This document shows positions 37,159 to 43,925 of a stretch of DNA of 64,000 nucleotides, one piece after another. Source of the stretch: a virus. Where the stretch lies: the IMG/VR virus record IMGVR_UViG_3300050343_000182; one strand, written 5' to 3'. The stretch's first letter is position 1, and every line of letters begins with the position of its first letter. The notes under the pieces are model-generated. The model did not search any database. It had not been told where the DNA came from and saw nothing but the letters and a program-made list of their open reading frames with translations. Position numbers and translations under genes: made by a program.

Positions 37159-38531
37159 GCCTAAAGATCGAAGAGATTGCACTCAGTAAACTTATCCTTG
37201 AGGAAGATTACTGTCGAAAGGTTTTGCCTTTCCTTAAGGATGAATACTTCGATATGTTTACTAACCGTCTGTTGTTTCAGACGATTCAGGAATACATCGG
37301 TGAGTACGATATCAATCCAGAGCCTAACGCTCTGAAGATTGAGATTGAGCAGCGACGTGACATCACGGAGGACACTTACAAGGAGATTGAAACCTTCCTT
37401 GATAACCTAGACCGTGACACATACAACGATGAATGGTTGATGGAGACCACTGAGAAGTGGTGTAAAGAACGTGCAGTCTATCTTGCTCTCATGGAGTCAG
37501 TTAAGATTGCAGATGGACAAGATAAGACAAGGACAAAGGACGCTATCCCCAGCATTATGTCTGAGGCATTGGGCGTCTGTTTTGATGATCATGTAGGTCA
37601 CGATTACATCTCTGATGCATCAGACCGTTACGACTTTTACCACAGGAAAGAGGAGAAGATTCCCTTTGACATCGACTATTTTAACAAAATCACAAAAGGT
37701 GGTCTGCCTAATAAGACTCTCAACATCGCACTTGCTGGCACAGGTGTCGGGAAGTCTCTATTCATGTGCCACTGCGCTAGTGCCAGTCTCCTGCAGGGGA
37801 GGAACGTACTCTACATTACACTTGAAATGGCAGAGGAGAAGATTGCTGAGCGAATTGACGCCAACCTTCTGGACATCCCGATCCAACAACTGAGTGATCC
37901 GATGTTTACTAAAGAGAGATACATCAAGAAGGTGGACTCTCTTAAGAAGAAGACACAAGGTCGCTTAGTTATTAAAGAGTATCCCACAGCGTCTGCACAT
38001 GTGGGACACTTTGAAGCACTCTTGAATGAGTTGTCACTCAAGAAAGGTTTCCATCCTGACATTGTATTTGTTGACTACCTTAATATCTGTGCGTCCTCAC
38101 GATACAAAGGGACTGCAGTCAATTCCTATACATATGTTAAGTCCATCGCAGAGGAATTGAGAGGACTCGCTGGCAAGTTGAATGTCCCTATTGTCTCTGC
38201 TACTCAAACTACCCGAAGTGGATATGGAAATTCTGATGTGGATATTACCGATACTAGCGAGTCTTTTGGACTGCCTGCTACTGCTGATCTTATGGTCGCG
38301 CTTATATCCACAGAGGAGATGGAGCAGCTGGGTCAGATCATGGTCAAGCAACTCAAAAATAGATACAACGACCCCACCCTATTCAAACGATTTGTTGTAG
38401 GGATTGACAGGGCGAAGATGAGGCTGTATGATTGTGACCAGTCCGCCCAGGACAACATCATTGATGCTGGTGACATCAGTGAGGATGCATTCACCGATAC
38501 TAAAAAAAGTTTTGACGGATTCAAAGTATGA
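37155..38531 (+). CDS. gp41: Replicative helicase gp41
   Basis: LAGTGVGKS, TLEMAEE, VDYLNIC, SESFGLPATAD, KQLKNRY. Confidence 0.96.
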   Translation: MSLKIEEIALSKLILEEDYCRKVLPFLKDEYFDMFTNRLLFQTIQEYIGEYDINPEPNALKIEIEQRRDITEDTYKEIETFLDNLDRDTYNDEWLMETTEKWCKERAVYLALMESVKIADGQDKTRTKDAIPSIMSEALGVCFDDHVGHDYISDASDRYDFYHRKEEKIPFDIDYFNKITKGGLPNKTLNIALAGTGVGKSLFMCHCASASLLQGRNVLYITLEMAEEKIAERIDANLLDIPIQQLSDPMFTKERYIKKVDSLKKKTQGRLVIKEYPTASAHVGHFEALLNELSLKKGFHPDIVFVDYLNICASSRYKGTAVNSYTYVKSIAEELRGLAGKLNVPIVSATQTTRSGYGNSDVDITDTSESFGLPATADLMVALISTEEMEQLGQIMVKQLKNRYNDPTLFKRFVVGIDRAKMRLYDCDQSAQDNIIDAGDISEDAFTDTKKSFDGFKV

Positions 38532-39184
38532 CTGACCCCAACAAGTTTACCCAACAAGGTGAGCCTAATTATGAATTAGAGCAACAGACAGAGAAAATCT
38601 CTGGTGATGCTCAAGAGAAGGTTGAAGAGGAGCGTGTTCGTGCTCAAGAGGTCGCAGACTCTACTCCCAAGACTCCTGAGGAGATGCTCAACAACCCTGA
38701 TGTTGTGGCACCCAAGACCAAGAAGAAAGCAGCAGAGAAGAAAGCTGCTGCCGCTGCAGGAAAGGGTGGGAGTGAGAAGTTTGAAGTGGATCTTGATCGC
38801 TATTGCAGTTTTGTAGATCGTGTTACTTCTCCTGCTAGTAAGGACTACCTGTCTTACATGGAGCGTCTGACTGAGTTGCACAAAGCAGGTTGTAACATCG
38901 AGCGTCTTGACACTGCTGCAGCAGGTATCTGTGCAGAGGGTGGAGAGTTTGCAGAGATCGTTAAGAAGATCAAATTCCAAGGCAAACCTTGGGACACTGC
39001 TAACAAAGAGCACCTGCAGAAAGAGTTGGGTGATATCATGTGGTATGTTGCCAATGCTGCTATTGCACTGGACATGCGACTCGATGAAATCATCTACATC
39101 AACACACTGAAACTGGCAGCACGTTACCCTGAGGGTATGTTTGATGTCAACTACAGTGAGAATCGTGCTCCAGGAGATATCTAA
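38528..39184 (+). CDS. mazG: MazG-family nucleotide pyrophosphohydrolase with N-terminal extension
   Basis: AEGGEFAEIVKK, KELGDIMWY, KLAARYP. Confidence 0.9.
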   Translation: MTDPNKFTQQGEPNYELEQQTEKISGDAQEKVEEERVRAQEVADSTPKTPEEMLNNPDVVAPKTKKKAAEKKAAAAAGKGGSEKFEVDLDRYCSFVDRVTSPASKDYLSYMERLTELHKAGCNIERLDTAAAGICAEGGEFAEIVKKIKFQGKPWDTANKEHLQKELGDIMWYVANAAIALDMRLDEIIYINTLKLAARYPEGMFDVNYSENRAPGDI

Positions 39185-39450
39185 TGCAGTTTAGTCAAGA
39201 TGATCTTTGGAATCAGATTGCATCCCTTGGTTGGGATGTAAGGCATGATAACATTCACATCGAGATTGGTGGCACACAGGTATCTGGTATCGAGCAACCT
39301 GAAGGATACAATAAAAAGTGGGCAGCCCAAAAGGGTGACCGCAAGTATAATAAGGATGCATTCATTGTTATCAAGAACCTATCACGCAACGACGACACCA
39401 AGTCTCAACCTATGGACAGGGAGCACAAACCTCATCATCTAAATAGTTAG
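39184..39450 (+). CDS. Hypothetical protein
   Basis: TAATG-coupled to mazG; 88 aa. Confidence 0.7.
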   Translation: MQFSQDDLWNQIASLGWDVRHDNIHIEIGGTQVSGIEQPEGYNKKWAAQKGDRKYNKDAFIVIKNLSRNDDTKSQPMDREHKPHHLNS

Positions 39451-39467: not shown

Positions 39468-40292
39468 ATGGCAAACAAGGGTTTACAATTTGAGCACGCT
39501 GTAATGTATTCTGCTATGAGCAGAGTCACCAGTAAGTCATCACAAAATAAAAAAGATTTTGATGATGCTGCTGGACGCTATGAAGCCATTCCTAATGACA
39601 TCAAGCAAGCAGCAGATCGAGTTGTGCAAAACTATGCTCCATCTGGTCTCGGTGCAAGACAAGAATACTATTCTTCATTCGAGAAGATGTCTGGTGGTGG
39701 AGAAGAACCTAAGACTGATATTAAGTTTAAGTCTGGTAGCACAGTATATAAGTGCTCAATGAAATGGGGAGACTCTTTTCAACTCTCATCAGCGGGGGTT
39801 GATAAGAGTCTTCTTGTTTTACAAAATGTTTTGAAAAAGACTGCAAAGGAAATGGGTGGTAGCACTGATGCTGAGACCCTAGGTTATCTACAATTAGTCC
39901 TGGAGCAGATCGGTAACAAGTGTGAGAATGCAAAAGGCACCATCGCACAACCACAGGCCAAAGCAATCCTCTCTGATATCAAGAAGTCGGGTGGGTTGAA
40001 TGAGCAACTGCAAGAGATCTTAGGATCAAAGCAGAAACCTAATGGTGCAGAAGCATATGATAGATTCAAATATAACTTGACGCACGAGTGTATGACTGGT
40101 GCCCTCCTGTTTAACGGTGATGACAGGGCAGCATCTCATATCCTGACAGAGGACGGGATCAAACCCATAGATGAGAAGGCAGTCCGTGACGTGATGAAGG
40201 TGGCAGGAGTCAGGGTATCCCTCAAGGGCAGGGGCACGGACAAAGTTACAGGTGTCCGTCAGAACGCCATTGTGATCCGATACGAGGTATAA
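39468..40292 (+). CDS. Putative PD-(D/E)xK-fold nuclease
   Basis: GLQFEHAV...PKTDIKF...CSMK; TAAATA at 39440-39445. Confidence 0.55.
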   Translation: MANKGLQFEHAVMYSAMSRVTSKSSQNKKDFDDAAGRYEAIPNDIKQAADRVVQNYAPSGLGARQEYYSSFEKMSGGGEEPKTDIKFKSGSTVYKCSMKWGDSFQLSSAGVDKSLLVLQNVLKKTAKEMGGSTDAETLGYLQLVLEQIGNKCENAKGTIAQPQAKAILSDIKKSGGLNEQLQEILGSKQKPNGAEAYDRFKYNLTHECMTGALLFNGDDRAASHILTEDGIKPIDEKAVRDVMKVAGVRVSLKGRGTDKVTGVRQNAIVIRYEV

Positions 40293-40299
40293 TACAGGT

Positions 40300-41484
40300 A
40301 TGGCAAACACACACTTAGAGCACCTAGAGGACGACATCCTCAATGGAGGATCCAAGGGAGGTCACAACGCTATCGCATTCTTGCGCTCGCTAGGCGACAT
40401 GCTTGGCAAACCTCAGTCCAACATGAGGGTCACTACTAAGTGGGACGGTGCTCCCGCTGTCATCTGTGGCATTCATCCTGGCACTGGTAACTTCTTCGTG
40501 GGCACCAAGGGTGTCTTTGCTAAGATGCCTAAGATCTGTGTGACTCATGAGGATGTTGACACATGGTATAGCGGTGCCTTAGCAGAGAAACTTAAAGATT
40601 GTCTTAACGAGTTACCTAAGTTAGGTATCAAAGGTGTGCTACAGGGTGATCTCCTCTTCACTAACGATACGATTGTTAAAAATATTAATGGTGAGAAGTC
40701 CTTGGTCTTCCAACCCAACACCATCACCTATGCAGTACCTGCCGATACAGATATGGCAAAGAAATTGCAAGCAGCGAAGGTGGGCATTGTATTCCACACC
40801 TCATATAGTGGTGGTCCTACCCTCCGTGACATGAAGGCATCCTTTGGTGTTAATGTTAATGGTATGCAGGGTGTGAAGAGTGTCGCTGTATTCTCTTCCA
40901 ACTTCTCAGACGATAAAGGTAAGTCTTACTTCACTAATGCTGAGCGTATTCGTTACAATGCTGCTGTCAAGAAGGCAGAAGGATCTCTCAAGCAGGCATC
41001 TAAGTTCTTAGATATTCTGCAGACGAGTGGTGAAGGTAAGTTTATGCTTGCTCCTATGTTTAAGATTTATTTCAACACATATATTCGACAAGGTAAGACA
41101 TTCCCCAGTGCTGCACAAGTATCCAAGGGATTTGAAGACTTCTATACTGCTGCACTTGATAAGGAGATCTCCCTCAAGAAGCAGGAGACAACCAAGAAGA
41201 AGTATCTTACAATGAAAGAGAATGGTCTGAAGTTTATCAAAATGAATAGCACTGCTATCTACATGACTGTCGCTTCCTACATGAATCTCACTGCTGCTAA
41301 GACTTTGGTCATCAGACAACTAGAGAAAGTCCAAGGCATCGGCACCTATATCAAGACTGATAAAGGTTACAAAGTTACTGCACCAGAAGGATTCGTTGCT
41401 ATCAAGTCGGGCAATGCACTCAAATTGGTGGACCGCTTGGAGTTTTCCAGAGCGAATTTCACCGTCGAGAAGAACTGGGGTTGA
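40300..41484 (+). CDS. Putative covalent nucleotidyltransferase (ligase/capping-enzyme fold)
   Basis: Motif I TTKWDG, III VLQGDLLF, IV PEGFVAI, V ALKLVDR in canonical order. Confidence 0.65.
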   Translation: MANTHLEHLEDDILNGGSKGGHNAIAFLRSLGDMLGKPQSNMRVTTKWDGAPAVICGIHPGTGNFFVGTKGVFAKMPKICVTHEDVDTWYSGALAEKLKDCLNELPKLGIKGVLQGDLLFTNDTIVKNINGEKSLVFQPNTITYAVPADTDMAKKLQAAKVGIVFHTSYSGGPTLRDMKASFGVNVNGMQGVKSVAVFSSNFSDDKGKSYFTNAERIRYNAAVKKAEGSLKQASKFLDILQTSGEGKFMLAPMFKIYFNTYIRQGKTFPSAAQVSKGFEDFYTAALDKEISLKKQETTKKKYLTMKENGLKFIKMNSTAIYMTVASYMNLTAAKTLVIRQLEKVQGIGTYIKTDKGYKVTAPEGFVAIKSGNALKLVDRLEFSRANFTVEKNWG

Positions 41485-41520
41485 TAAATAAAGTATATGG
41501 CTGAGTTTTTTAGTAAACCA

Positions 41521-42636
41521 ATGCGATTTATTACATTCATAAGAGAAGCAGCGGCTGCAGCAAAACCTGCTGCTAAGAAACCTTCCACATCTAGTAAGGG
41601 TAAGTCTCCTGCTGCTCAAGCAAAGATAGATGATAAGCATGTTGCTATCACCTTTGGTAGATTCAATCCACCTCATGCTGGTCATGGTAAACTCCTTGAT
41701 GCAGTCAAGGACCATGGTGGTGACTCAGGTAACTATCGTATCTACCCATCTAGATCGCAAGATCATAAGAAGAATCCACTGACTGCACATCAGAAGGTGG
41801 ATCACATGCGTAAGATGTTTAAGGGGCACAAGGATGCTATCCAGAACAATGAAGCGCACAGAAATATTTTTGATATCCTTCGTGACCTTCATGATGAAGG
41901 GCATGAGCATGTAACTATGGTTGTCGGAGACGACCGTGTGAAAGAGTTTGAAACTCTTGCTAACAAATATAATGGTAAGCACTATGACTTCAAGTCTATT
42001 AACATTAAGTCTGCAGGGGCTCGTGCTACTGACTCTGATGATCCTATCGAGAATCTGTCTGCATCAGCAATGCGTAAACACGCCCAAGGGGGTGACCATG
42101 AATCATTCCACGCTGGGACTGGTGGATACAAGGACTCTAAGAAACTGATGGGTGATGTCCTCACTGGGATGACACCTCCACCTAAAGCGAAGAAGGGTAA
42201 GAAGGGTGAGTCTGTCCACGAATCTGTGTGGTCATACGCTCCTAAACTTGACTTCGATGCCTTCCGTGACTACTATATGCTCAACCAAATCTTTAAGGTG
42301 GGTGCAATCGTAGAGCATGACGACAGTGGTATCCGTGGTAGGGTTGCACATCGTGGCACTAACTACGTTATCATTCGTGATAGTTGGGGTGGCGAGCACC
42401 GTTGCTGGTTGCAGCACATCAGTGAAGTTGCACAACTAGGACCATCAGATCTTAGTCACAAGCAAGAGGTTGCTGCTGATACTACTAAGGATCAAAGCAA
42501 CTATAGTGCCGATGATGGCAGTGGTAACACCTGGAAAGCAGGGACTGATCGCTACCGTGAAGCACTTCAGAACATGACCCCTGGTCAAAAGACAGTTAAA
42601 TTCACAGATTTCAGAAAATCTGCTGAAACTAAATAG
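41521..42636 (+). CDS. Cytidylyltransferase-family (NadM/NMNAT-like) nucleotidyltransferase
   Basis: TFGRFNPPHAGH, SQDHKKNPL, VVGDDR, LSASAMR; ATAAATA at 41484-41490; likely start MRFITFIREA. Confidence 0.85.
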   Translation: MRFITFIREAAAAAKPAAKKPSTSSKGKSPAAQAKIDDKHVAITFGRFNPPHAGHGKLLDAVKDHGGDSGNYRIYPSRSQDHKKNPLTAHQKVDHMRKMFKGHKDAIQNNEAHRNIFDILRDLHDEGHEHVTMVVGDDRVKEFETLANKYNGKHYDFKSINIKSAGARATDSDDPIENLSASAMRKHAQGGDHESFHAGTGGYKDSKKLMGDVLTGMTPPPKAKKGKKGESVHESVWSYAPKLDFDAFRDYYMLNQIFKVGAIVEHDDSGIRGRVAHRGTNYVIIRDSWGGEHRCWLQHISEVAQLGPSDLSHKQEVAADTTKDQSNYSADDGSGNTWKAGTDRYREALQNMTPGQKTVKFTDFRKSAETK

Positions 42637-42666: not shown

Positions 42667-43545
42667 ATGACGTTAGAAATGCTGGTGTCTGCCGCACTCA
42701 TGGATTACAATCCCACTGAGCAGACATACATCCTCAAAGCAATCGAAGAAGATACTCTTCCAAAATCACAGAGACTCCACACAGGTGTCATGAAAGTGAT
42801 GGAAGCATTCGATGCTTACGAGCCTACAGTAGAAGGCTATGCAGGATTCAAAATTGATCGTAACTCCGTCTCAAAGAAGAAGGCAGAGTATAAAGATGAT
42901 CGAAATGTAGGTCGTGTTGTCAGATCTGGTAGTGGTGACTCTATGCTCATCACTGGTAAGAAGGCAGACGGTCGTTACATTGTTGTCGGTAAGAAAGGAG
43001 AGAAGTCAGCGAGAGATGCTGCTGACCTCGGCGTGACCGCCAAAGAAGAAGTGGTCGGCATTGATATCGATGACCTCCATCAAGAAATGCTTGAAGGTCT
43101 CAAGCAAGCACGCAAGAATGTGGGTGCTAGCAAGTGCTGGGACGGATACAAAGCAAGTGGCACTAAGAAGAAGGGTGGCAAAGATGTCCCCAACTGTGTC
43201 AAAGAAGAAGAGTTAGACGAACTCTACAAAGGTAAGCACGGACAGTCCGAGAAAGAGTATCAAGACGGTCGCTCACAAGGTGGCAAGATGGTCTCTGGCG
43301 ATTCTAAAGGGAGTGGTGCAAAATACTCTCACGGCAGAAGAGTTGACGACGGTGGCGCTGGTCCACAACCTGCTGGTGGTTCTAAGAAACCAAAGGCACA
43401 AGGTAGGATGGACAAAGGTGGTCGTGCCGAATTAGTAATGCGTAAAGCAAACCTCAAAGCAAAGAATGAGGACTTTATAAATAAACTATCGGACTCAGGA
43501 TTATTTACTGAGGCTGAATTACAAAAGATGGGTGAGATTGAATGA
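42667..43545 (+). CDS. Late, charged protein, probably a virion internal protein
   Basis: TAAATA at 42630; KCWDGYKASGTKKKGGKDVPNCVKEE module. Confidence 0.7.
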   Translation: MTLEMLVSAALMDYNPTEQTYILKAIEEDTLPKSQRLHTGVMKVMEAFDAYEPTVEGYAGFKIDRNSVSKKKAEYKDDRNVGRVVRSGSGDSMLITGKKADGRYIVVGKKGEKSARDAADLGVTAKEEVVGIDIDDLHQEMLEGLKQARKNVGASKCWDGYKASGTKKKGGKDVPNCVKEEELDELYKGKHGQSEKEYQDGRSQGGKMVSGDSKGSGAKYSHGRRVDDGGAGPQPAGGSKKPKAQGRMDKGGRAELVMRKANLKAKNEDFINKLSDSGLFTEAELQKMGEIE

Positions 43546-43925
43546 AACCAATCGGTCACAAAGAATCATCTCTAAAGACTACCAAGAAAGGTAACGTCAC
43601 CATCAATCCAAAGAAAGAGGACCTTATGTCTGAACATCTGAGAAGTAGAATCCTGAGTAGCGTAGAAGCACTCAAGGAAGCTGCCAAGAAAAAAGACAAA
43701 CACATCAAAGCCGCCAAGGCAGGTAAGCGTTGGCAGGATTCTGACGGCGATGGCAAGTGGTATGAGCCTGGTCAGGATGTCAAGAAAGAAGAGTGCGACA
43801 CCCCTGCCCCCAAGGTAGACAACGTAGCAGACGACGCTGCAAAGAAAGCTGCTAAGGATCGCATGAAGGAAAAGATGCTACAAGCTACAGCCGATTTCGA
43901 TAGAAAGAAGGCAGGCGGGAAGTAA
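43542..43925 (+). CDS. Late basic protein, probably a virion internal protein
   Basis: WQDSDGDGKWYEPGQDVKKEE. Confidence 0.7.
   Translation: MKPIGHKESSLKTTKKGNVTINPKKEDLMSEHLRSRILSSVEALKEAAKKKDKHIKAAKAGKRWQDSDGDGKWYEPGQDVKKEECDTPAPKVDNVADDAAKKAAKDRMKEKMLQATADFDRKKAGGK

Follow-up and report, generated by a model that had tools for sequence, protein, structure and literature searches.

A proposed late-expressed gene module of marine T4-like phages with a likely divergent ligase-superfamily nucleotidyltransferase and a leader-bearing HIGH-motif partner

Homologues of the T4 DNA ligase gp30 were not found in cyanomyoviruses, an unrecognised distant homologue being left possible (PMC2984593), whose late promoters follow the consensus NATAAATA or CTAAATA in the same study. 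Cyanophage papers have also named, by prediction, a nicotinamide mononucleotide adenylyltransferase (NMNAT) gene (PMC10665884, PMC12801897), and the internal proteins of T4 are known to be cut after a capsid-targeting sequence, MKTYQEFIAE (PMC8442874). In this work, we analyzed three genes, ORFs A, B and C, at positions 39468-42636 of a 64,000-nt stretch of virus DNA (IMG/VR record IMGVR_UViG_3300050343_000182; hereafter, the window). The source of the window is a T4-like cyanomyovirus, matches to the DNA of the region being confined to Kyanoviridae (76-82% identity, over part of ORF C). All three ORFs are present on the plus strand at the coordinates given in Table 1, and the trio is genuine, representing an uncharacterised variant of enzyme kinds already described. 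With moderate confidence, we read it as a module that marine T4-like phages express late and whose core is a pair of coupled nucleotidyl-transfer enzymes, ORFs B and C, the latter loaded into the head.

Each product has described counterparts from which it departs in several ways. ORF B resembles nick-sealing, ATP-dependent RNA ligases (NgrRnl/Rnl5, T4 Rnl2, trypanosome REL1 and fungal Trl1) in fold, with Z scores of 8.6-7.3 over about 180 residues, in the order of its motifs (KxDG lysine, acidic-residue strand, EG strand, lysine strand) and in lacking an OB domain, as they do. Unlike them, it shows no sequence or profile similarity to the group, and its own features include a helical insert, about 130 residues long, before motif IV, an invariant N-terminal HLEHLED, a single lysine in motif V (KLVDR), a HIGH-motif nucleotidyltransferase as partner or fusion, and many relatives that appear to be head-targeted. 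ORF C has in common with NMNATs (archaeal NadM, the NMNAT domain of NadR, and NadD) the GRFNPPHAGH motif, an ISxxxxR-like SASAMR and a PF01467 match, but scores below the cut-offs of those families and carries, in addition, a capsid-targeting-like leader, an SH3-like region and an invariant tail. With the T4 internal proteins (IPI, IPII, IPIII and Alt) it shares a leader of about ten residues ending in hydrophobic-x-Glu before Ala (MKTYQEFIAE in T4, MRFITFIRE/A here), a late promoter motif and an orthologue present in virions; in contrast, the cargo would be a pair of enzymes without known parallel among the T4 internal proteins, and its cleavage and injection are predicted. Finally, ORF A has the fold of HinP1I, MspI and HhaI over most of its length. 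In HhaI, the D of SD-X11-EAK opens one strand and the K closes the next (PMC7026639); TD-X12-SMK of ORF A has the same strand placement, and both proteins have a Glu in an N-terminal helix. ORF A differs from these enzymes in having Ser for the second acid and no adjoining methyltransferase, and in being a phage late gene accompanied by a ligase-like gene.

ORF B and the ligase fold

ORF B is a full-length member of the Pfam family DUF6267 (PF19782, E 7e-129), which has at least 8000 matches in 90% clusters and 2511 representatives at 50% identity, and of which no mention was found in the literature searched. The original prediction had recognised motifs I, III, IV and V of the covalent nucleotidyltransferases in canonical order, and this was borne out: in TTK47WDG, VLQG116D117LLF, PE363G364FVAI and ALK375LVDR, the residues K47, D49, G50, G116, D117, E363, G364 and K375 are invariant among 69 relatives of 33-94% identity, as are Y144, H166 and H8 of the N-terminal HLEHLED. 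K47 is predicted to be the lysine that accepts the nucleotide. Every motif is also kept in a short, 302-aa form of DUF6267 from S-IOM18, in which the insert is shorter.

In the AF2 model of ORF B (pLDDT 93.5, pTM 0.90), K47 closes strand 43-47 and is followed by the DG turn, QGD likewise lies on a strand, and EGFVAI and LKLV occupy strands 364-369 and 372-376, respectively; these are the strands expected for the motif residues in a ligase fold, which supports the fold reading. The model stops about 10 residues past motif V and has no OB-fold domain after the nucleotidyltransferase domain, the helical insert (residues about 213-341) being its sole extra element. We searched the model against 48,161 chains using an aligner independent of Foldseek (VIA-align), followed by a second-look alignment, and judged likeness to ligases from Z, aligned length and motif strands. 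RNA ligases headed the wide search, with NgrRnl at Z 8.6 (181 aa, rmsd 3.8), REL1 at 7.9, Trl1 at 7.7 and 7.6, T4 Rnl2 at 7.3 and T4 Rnl1 at 6.2, and DNA ligases stood below them at Z 5-6; most of the top rows, from Z 8.6 down to about 5 and over some 180 residues, were ligases. In the second-look alignment the best 43 rows were ligases without exception, again with RNA ligases leading. The model, the structural rows and the alignment thus uphold the ligase nucleotidyltransferase fold and the conserved K47 that had been proposed, the Foldseek result by itself not being significant.

On this structural evidence, ORF B likely belongs to the covalent lysyl-NMP superfamily of ATP-dependent ligases and capping enzymes. 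We base its membership on fold and motifs because sequence methods show no kinship, and we call it likely rather than proven because a Z near 8 is only modestly over background. HLEHLED (residues 5-11, nt 40300-40335) has H5, H8, E10 and D11 invariant or nearly so and, in the leader-bearing relatives described below, comes immediately after the site of predicted protease cleavage; a role in binding a metal or the leaving group is possible, and we know of no counterpart in solved ligases.

ORF C, its leader and its link to ORF B

ORF C passes PF01467 (37.1 bits, cut-off 21) and matches phrog_395 ("cytidyltransferase") and the C-terminal half of phrog_455, and its best, weak NCBIfam matches are to the NadD, NadR and NadM/NMNAT families. 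Its motifs FGRFNPPHAGH (53-63), SQDHKKNPL and SASAMR (188-193) are invariant in 29 relatives, which are mutually close. Its description as a NadM/NMNAT-like HxGH transferase therefore stands as regards the HIGH and SxxxxR motifs and PF01467, but does not extend to the curated families, whose equivalog cut-offs lie above its scores. The start codon is most likely the ATG at 41521, M9 of the listed ORF, and not 41497, because nearly all relatives begin there and the late-promoter-like GATAAATA precedes it.

Several lines of evidence tie ORF C to ORF B. The first half of phrog_455 (764 positions) matches ORF B and the second half ORF C; among DUF6267 representatives, fusions occur both as DUF6267-transferase and as transferase-DUF6267, some of the fused HIGH-like domains going unrecognised by Pfam; and, among viral proteins, the one structurally closest to ORF B (TM 0.95) is a 591-aa "cytidyltransferase-like" protein of S-PM2, itself a B-C fusion. 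In a synteny survey of 80 IMG/VR loci with DUF6267, 15 were too short downstream to judge. Among the 65 informative loci, the transferase lies 3' of DUF6267 on the same strand in 55, adjacent in 32 and at 1-3.6 kb in 23; the other ten have at least 2.6 kb of downstream DNA without a transferase match, one of them with sugar-metabolism genes inserted. The ORF B family occurs in 468 isolate phage records, and those named Synechococcus, Cyanophage and Prochlorococcus number 368, 61 and 24 with ORF B as compared with 375, 61 and 24 with ORF C. The partnership of ORFs B and C is thus supported, and their repeated fusion, in both orders, argues for joint action.

The N-terminus of the ORF C family has the consensus MRFxQFIxEA. 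A strict leader pattern was found in 112 of 120 ORF C relatives and in none of 120 ORF A relatives, and 41521 is the one real gene start in the window that has it; the leader is predicted to be cut by the prohead protease after Glu. As for DUF6267, 98 of 132 representatives have an extension of 9-45 aa before HLEHLED (for instance MKSFKQFL..E), which in 45 of the 98 fits the strict pattern. The S-SZBM1 cytidylyltransferase, to which ORF C is 69% identical, was found in purified virions (2 peptides), together with S-SZBM1_139, encoded directly downstream of it, and the transferase is also contained in virions of S-CREM2 (PMC10665884). ORF C is probably packaged in the phage head, judging from its leader and these orthologues. 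Late-promoter-like motifs stand directly 5' of ORFs A and C and of the three genes that follow ORF C, and no enrichment of sigma-70-type promoters was found in the region; ORFs A and B, separated by a gap of 8 nt, are probably co-transcribed.

Some further features of this family were observed. The C-terminal tail of ORF C, QSNYSADDGSGNxWKxGTDxYRxAxQxMTPGQ (nt 42490-42636, residues about 332-379), is almost invariant; no known domain was found for it, and it may serve in docking or interaction. In related marine myoviruses, genes for an adenylate kinase (E 7e-34), AAA_33/zeta-like kinases, SufE and SET-domain proteins lie between DUF6267 and the transferase (L027:6651-11251, L041:7190-10813, L026:4464-8558 and L055:5362-8968), and the transferase is joined there to a Pol-beta-type nucleotidyltransferase or, at locus L023, to a kinase in proteins of 700-900 aa; almost all of these intervening or fused proteins have T4-like capsid-targeting leaders. 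Outside the marine groups, an ORF C-type transferase occurs in about 100 jumbo-phage records, with the hosts Escherichia, Klebsiella, Pseudomonas, Xanthomonas and Cronobacter, and Pseudomonas phage PA5oct, in addition, matches ORF B weakly in structure (BFVD, E 1.8e-4).

ORF A and the surrounding locus

ORF A (phrog_22045) has no Pfam match. As had been proposed, it is PD-(D/E)xK-like, with FE...KTD...SMK: F8, E9, K82, T83, D84, S97, M98 and K99 are invariant in 34 relatives, and the core reads E9 ... E80-P-K-T-D84 - X12 - S97-M-K99. Its AF2 model (pLDDT 85.5) was aligned by VIA-align with HinP1I (Z 8.9, 185 aa), MspI (Z 8.8, 188 aa) and HhaI (Z 6.3), the next row being at 5.2; the matches cover 151-188 of the 274 residues, and Foldseek agrees weakly (HinP1I, E 0.018). 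The model thus supports the PD-(D/E)xK fold of monomeric restriction enzymes. D84 and K99 of the triad are invariant and Ser97 stands at the position of the second acid, for which the invariant E9, E80 or E146 might substitute. Sequence searches of the PDB with ORFs A, B and C and with profiles A1 and A3 gave nothing meaningful.

The link of ORF A to the other two genes is of a different kind. Synteny of the trio genes across marine T4-like phages, which the original prediction expected, was found both in the loci of relatives and in the IMG/VR survey, and ORF A, where present, always lies immediately 5' of DUF6267. Support for ORF A as a member of the trio is weaker: its family is narrow, with 161 clusters and 10 isolate phage records as compared with the 468 of ORF B, and no nuclease-domain fusion was seen among 150 DUF6267 representatives. 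Other phages have, in the slot of ORF A, proteins of 350-500 aa belonging to other BLAST clusters. We compared nine clusters from the 80 upstream ORFs of the survey profile to profile. Seven of them, comprising 61 of the 80 ORFs, have a common D[ILF]…hSxK core that hhalign aligned to that of ORF A, but no cluster paired significantly with that of ORF A (E about 0.06-0.6), a short motif being the sole indication of homology. In an atlas look-up, which gives a lead only, one slot cluster was nearest to HpaII (0.83). A conserved "nuclease slot" 5' of DUF6267 is therefore plausible but unproven, and we propose that ORF A is a fast-evolving accessory and no fixed part of the module.

The gene order in the window is uvsX, a 2OG-Fe(II) oxygenase, gp41 helicase, MazG, an 88-aa gene and ORFs A, B and C, after which come two charged proteins and a head protein; the same order is found in S-WAM1, S-SZBM1, S-IOM18 and DSL-LC02. 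MazG, which had been placed one gene upstream of the trio, is two genes away from it, the 88-aa gene intervening. The neighbours of ORF A are thus MazG, the 88-aa gene and DUF6267, and no methyltransferase adjoins it. Both charged proteins downstream are Lys/Gly-rich and lie behind late-promoter-like motifs, and they are probably further head-internal proteins. The first 180 aa of the former are 53% identical to a virion-detected 457-aa protein of S-SZBM1 (S-SZBM1_139), and a small SH3-like module (phrog_22379) is common to it and the C-terminal region of ORF C.

Table 1 Features of the ORF A-C region of the window and their coordinates
Feature	Coordinates	Strand	Basis or remark
MazG	38528-39184		two genes 5' of ORF A
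88-aa gene	39184-39450		phrog_475; between MazG and ORF A
Late-promoter-like motif CTAAATAG	39439..39446	+	22 nt 5' of the ORF A start codon
ORF A, 274 aa, HinP1I/MspI/HhaI-fold nuclease-like	39468..40292	+	phrog_22045, AF2 model, structure alignment
ORF B, 394 aa, DUF6267, likely divergent ligase-superfamily nucleotidyltransferase	40300..41484	+	PF19782, motifs, AF2 model
Late-promoter-like motif GATAAATA	41483..41490	+	30 nt 5' of the ATG at 41521
Capsid-targeting-like leader MRFITFIRE, then Ala	41521..41547	+	family consensus, likeness to T4 leader
ORF C, 371 aa from the likely start (listed from 41497)	41521..42636	+	PF01467, phrog_395, phrog_455
HIGH-motif/SASAMR nucleotidyltransferase domain of ORF C	about 41626-42141		
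Small SH3-like region of ORF C	about 42244-42444		
Charged 292-aa protein	42667..43545	+	probable virion-associated neighbour, not counted with the enzyme pair; CTAAATAG at 42629 precedes
Second Lys/Gly-rich charged protein	43542-43925		late-promoter-like motif precedes

One possible role for ORF A was rejected, namely that it cuts CCGG and that the phage is self-protected by lack of the site. CCGG does not occur in the window, where trinucleotides predict 47 copies and base composition 157, and it is equally absent from the S-WAM1 and S-SZBM1 loci, which lack the ORF A family, as well as from that of S-IOM18. The window also strongly avoids GGCC (10 against 54 expected), GTAC (56 against 221) and AGCT (63 against 215), and does not avoid GATC; other phage groups avoid other 4-mers, such as GGCC in DLP_6 (0 against 83) and GATC at locus L084 (0 against 45). 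Because CCGG is missing without the ORF A family and palindrome avoidance varies by phage group, its lack cannot be assigned to ORF A, and it may reflect host restriction.

Proposed function and competing explanations

In the module that we propose, ORF B would charge K47 with a nucleotide and hand it to the 5'-phosphate end of RNA or DNA, so that the break would be sealed or the end left adenylylated. ORF C, as an adenylyltransferase of the NMNAT kind with a HIGH motif, would act together with it, making or regenerating a nucleotide cofactor such as NAD+ or handling the nucleotide product. Because ORF C has a T4-type capsid-targeting leader, we expect it to enter the head, to be processed by the prohead protease and to be injected along with the DNA. 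Many other phages have the leader on the ligase-like protein itself, or have this protein fused to the transferase; the leaderless ORF B of this clade may or may not travel with ORF C. The ORF A nuclease would be co-transcribed with ORF B. Nucleic-acid sealing, NAD handling or counter-defence could be the function served. The folds, the conserved catalytic residues, the fusions, the synteny and the leader were observed directly; the substrates, the cofactor, packaging in this phage and any action against host defences are inferred, as is the cut, adenylate and seal module, or the role against NAD depletion, of the original prediction.

A number of results weigh against this reading. Regarding ORF B, Foldseek gave nothing at E <= 0.001 against the PDB, ligases appearing only near E about 1; Pfam and NCBIfam return DUF6267 only, with no match to PF01068, PF09414 or PF09511; sequence and profile searches of the PDB gave no match; hhalign found no relation between the DUF6267 alignment and T4 Rnl2 as a single sequence; and, by the aligner's own note, a Z of 8.6 exceeds only by a little the values often reached by unrelated models. 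ORF C scores far under the curated NMNAT/NadD cut-offs of the four equivalog models compared (TIGR00482, TIGR01526, TIGR01527 and NF002243), with 27 bits against 112.45 and 18.6 against 341, and further with 11.6 against 181 and 15.9 against 127. As regards packaging, the leader pattern is found in none of 120 close ORF B relatives, the ORF B of this clade being leaderless, the virion proteome of S-SZBM1 has no entry for its DUF6267 protein, and abundant late proteins may merely co-purify with virions, as the authors caution (PMC10665884). Besides, T4-like gene order is kept by descent, which makes adjacency alone weak evidence, above all for ORF A.

A more specific form of the proposal, possible but doubtful in our view, is a virion-delivered two-enzyme system in which the transferase would make the donor (NAD+ or a relative) and the ligase-like enzyme would seal or adenylylate broken RNA or DNA moments after genome entry. 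If this were true, it would be the first injected ligase and the long-sought ligase activity of cyanomyoviruses.

Alternatively, ORF B could be the "missing" replicative DNA ligase of cyanomyoviruses, substituting for T4 gp30 at Okazaki and recombination nicks, with ORF C supplying a cofactor such as NAD+, which we regard as unlikely. The absence of another ligase was tested on complete genomes of relatives only: S-WAM1, S-SZBM1, S-IOM18 and HTVC008M have no PF01068 match, and S-WAM1, S-IOM18 and HTVC008M none to PF01653 or PF09414, in agreement with the published absence of gp30 (PMC2984593), and the location of the gene, between uvsX/gp41 and gp61/nrdA, would also suit such a role. RNA ligases nevertheless match ORF B best, DNA ligases being about 2-3 Z lower, and the model has no OB domain. 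Furthermore, the promoters are late-type and not early, many DUF6267 relatives have capsid-targeting leaders, and Stenotrophomonas phage DLP_6 holds both DUF6267 and a PF01068 ligase; these last three points make a purely replicative role less likely.

It is likewise improbable that ORF C alone matters, as an injected NMNAT sustaining host NAD+ against an NAD-depleting defence, with ORFs A and B as unrelated neighbours by kept gene order. The GRFxPxHxGH-type HIGH and SxxxxR motifs, the weak best matches to NadD, NadR and NadM, the orthologue detected in virions, and the NMNAT annotation and NAD role proposed in cyanophage papers (PMC10665884, PMC12801897) agree with this explanation. The repeated fusion with DUF6267 in both orders, however, argues for joint action, the scores lie far under the NMNAT equivalog cut-offs, and no Nampt was seen in the region examined. 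An NMNAT by itself cannot rebuild NAD+ from ADP-ribose and nicotinamide, which also counts against it. Lastly, ORF B could be an internal or assembly protein that retains a ligase-like fold without being catalytic. This would fit its lack of detectable sequence kinship to active ligase families, its large helical insert and its leader-bearing relatives, as in head-internal proteins, but is very improbable and hard to sustain because every nucleotidyl-transfer residue (K47, D49, G50, D117, E363, G364 and K375) is invariant down to 33% identity and kept in the 302-aa form.

The coupled pair of ORFs B and C that we favor concerns viruses that are among the ocean's most abundant. Essentially every sequenced cyanomyovirus (about 450 isolate records) has both DUF6267 and the partner transferase, which also occur in thousands of metagenomic proteins and whose annotation usually goes no further than "hypothetical" or "cytidyltransferase". 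With DUF6267 placed, as is likely, in the ligase superfamily, there is a definite candidate to fill a gap on record since 2010, that of T4-like cyanophages without a recognisable ligase (PMC2984593). The leaders further suggest that enzymes of nucleotide handling are injected together with the DNA of marine phages: a ligase-like protein and an adenylyltransferase, joined among relatives by adenylate kinase and other kinases. They would be a new class of early-acting cargo.

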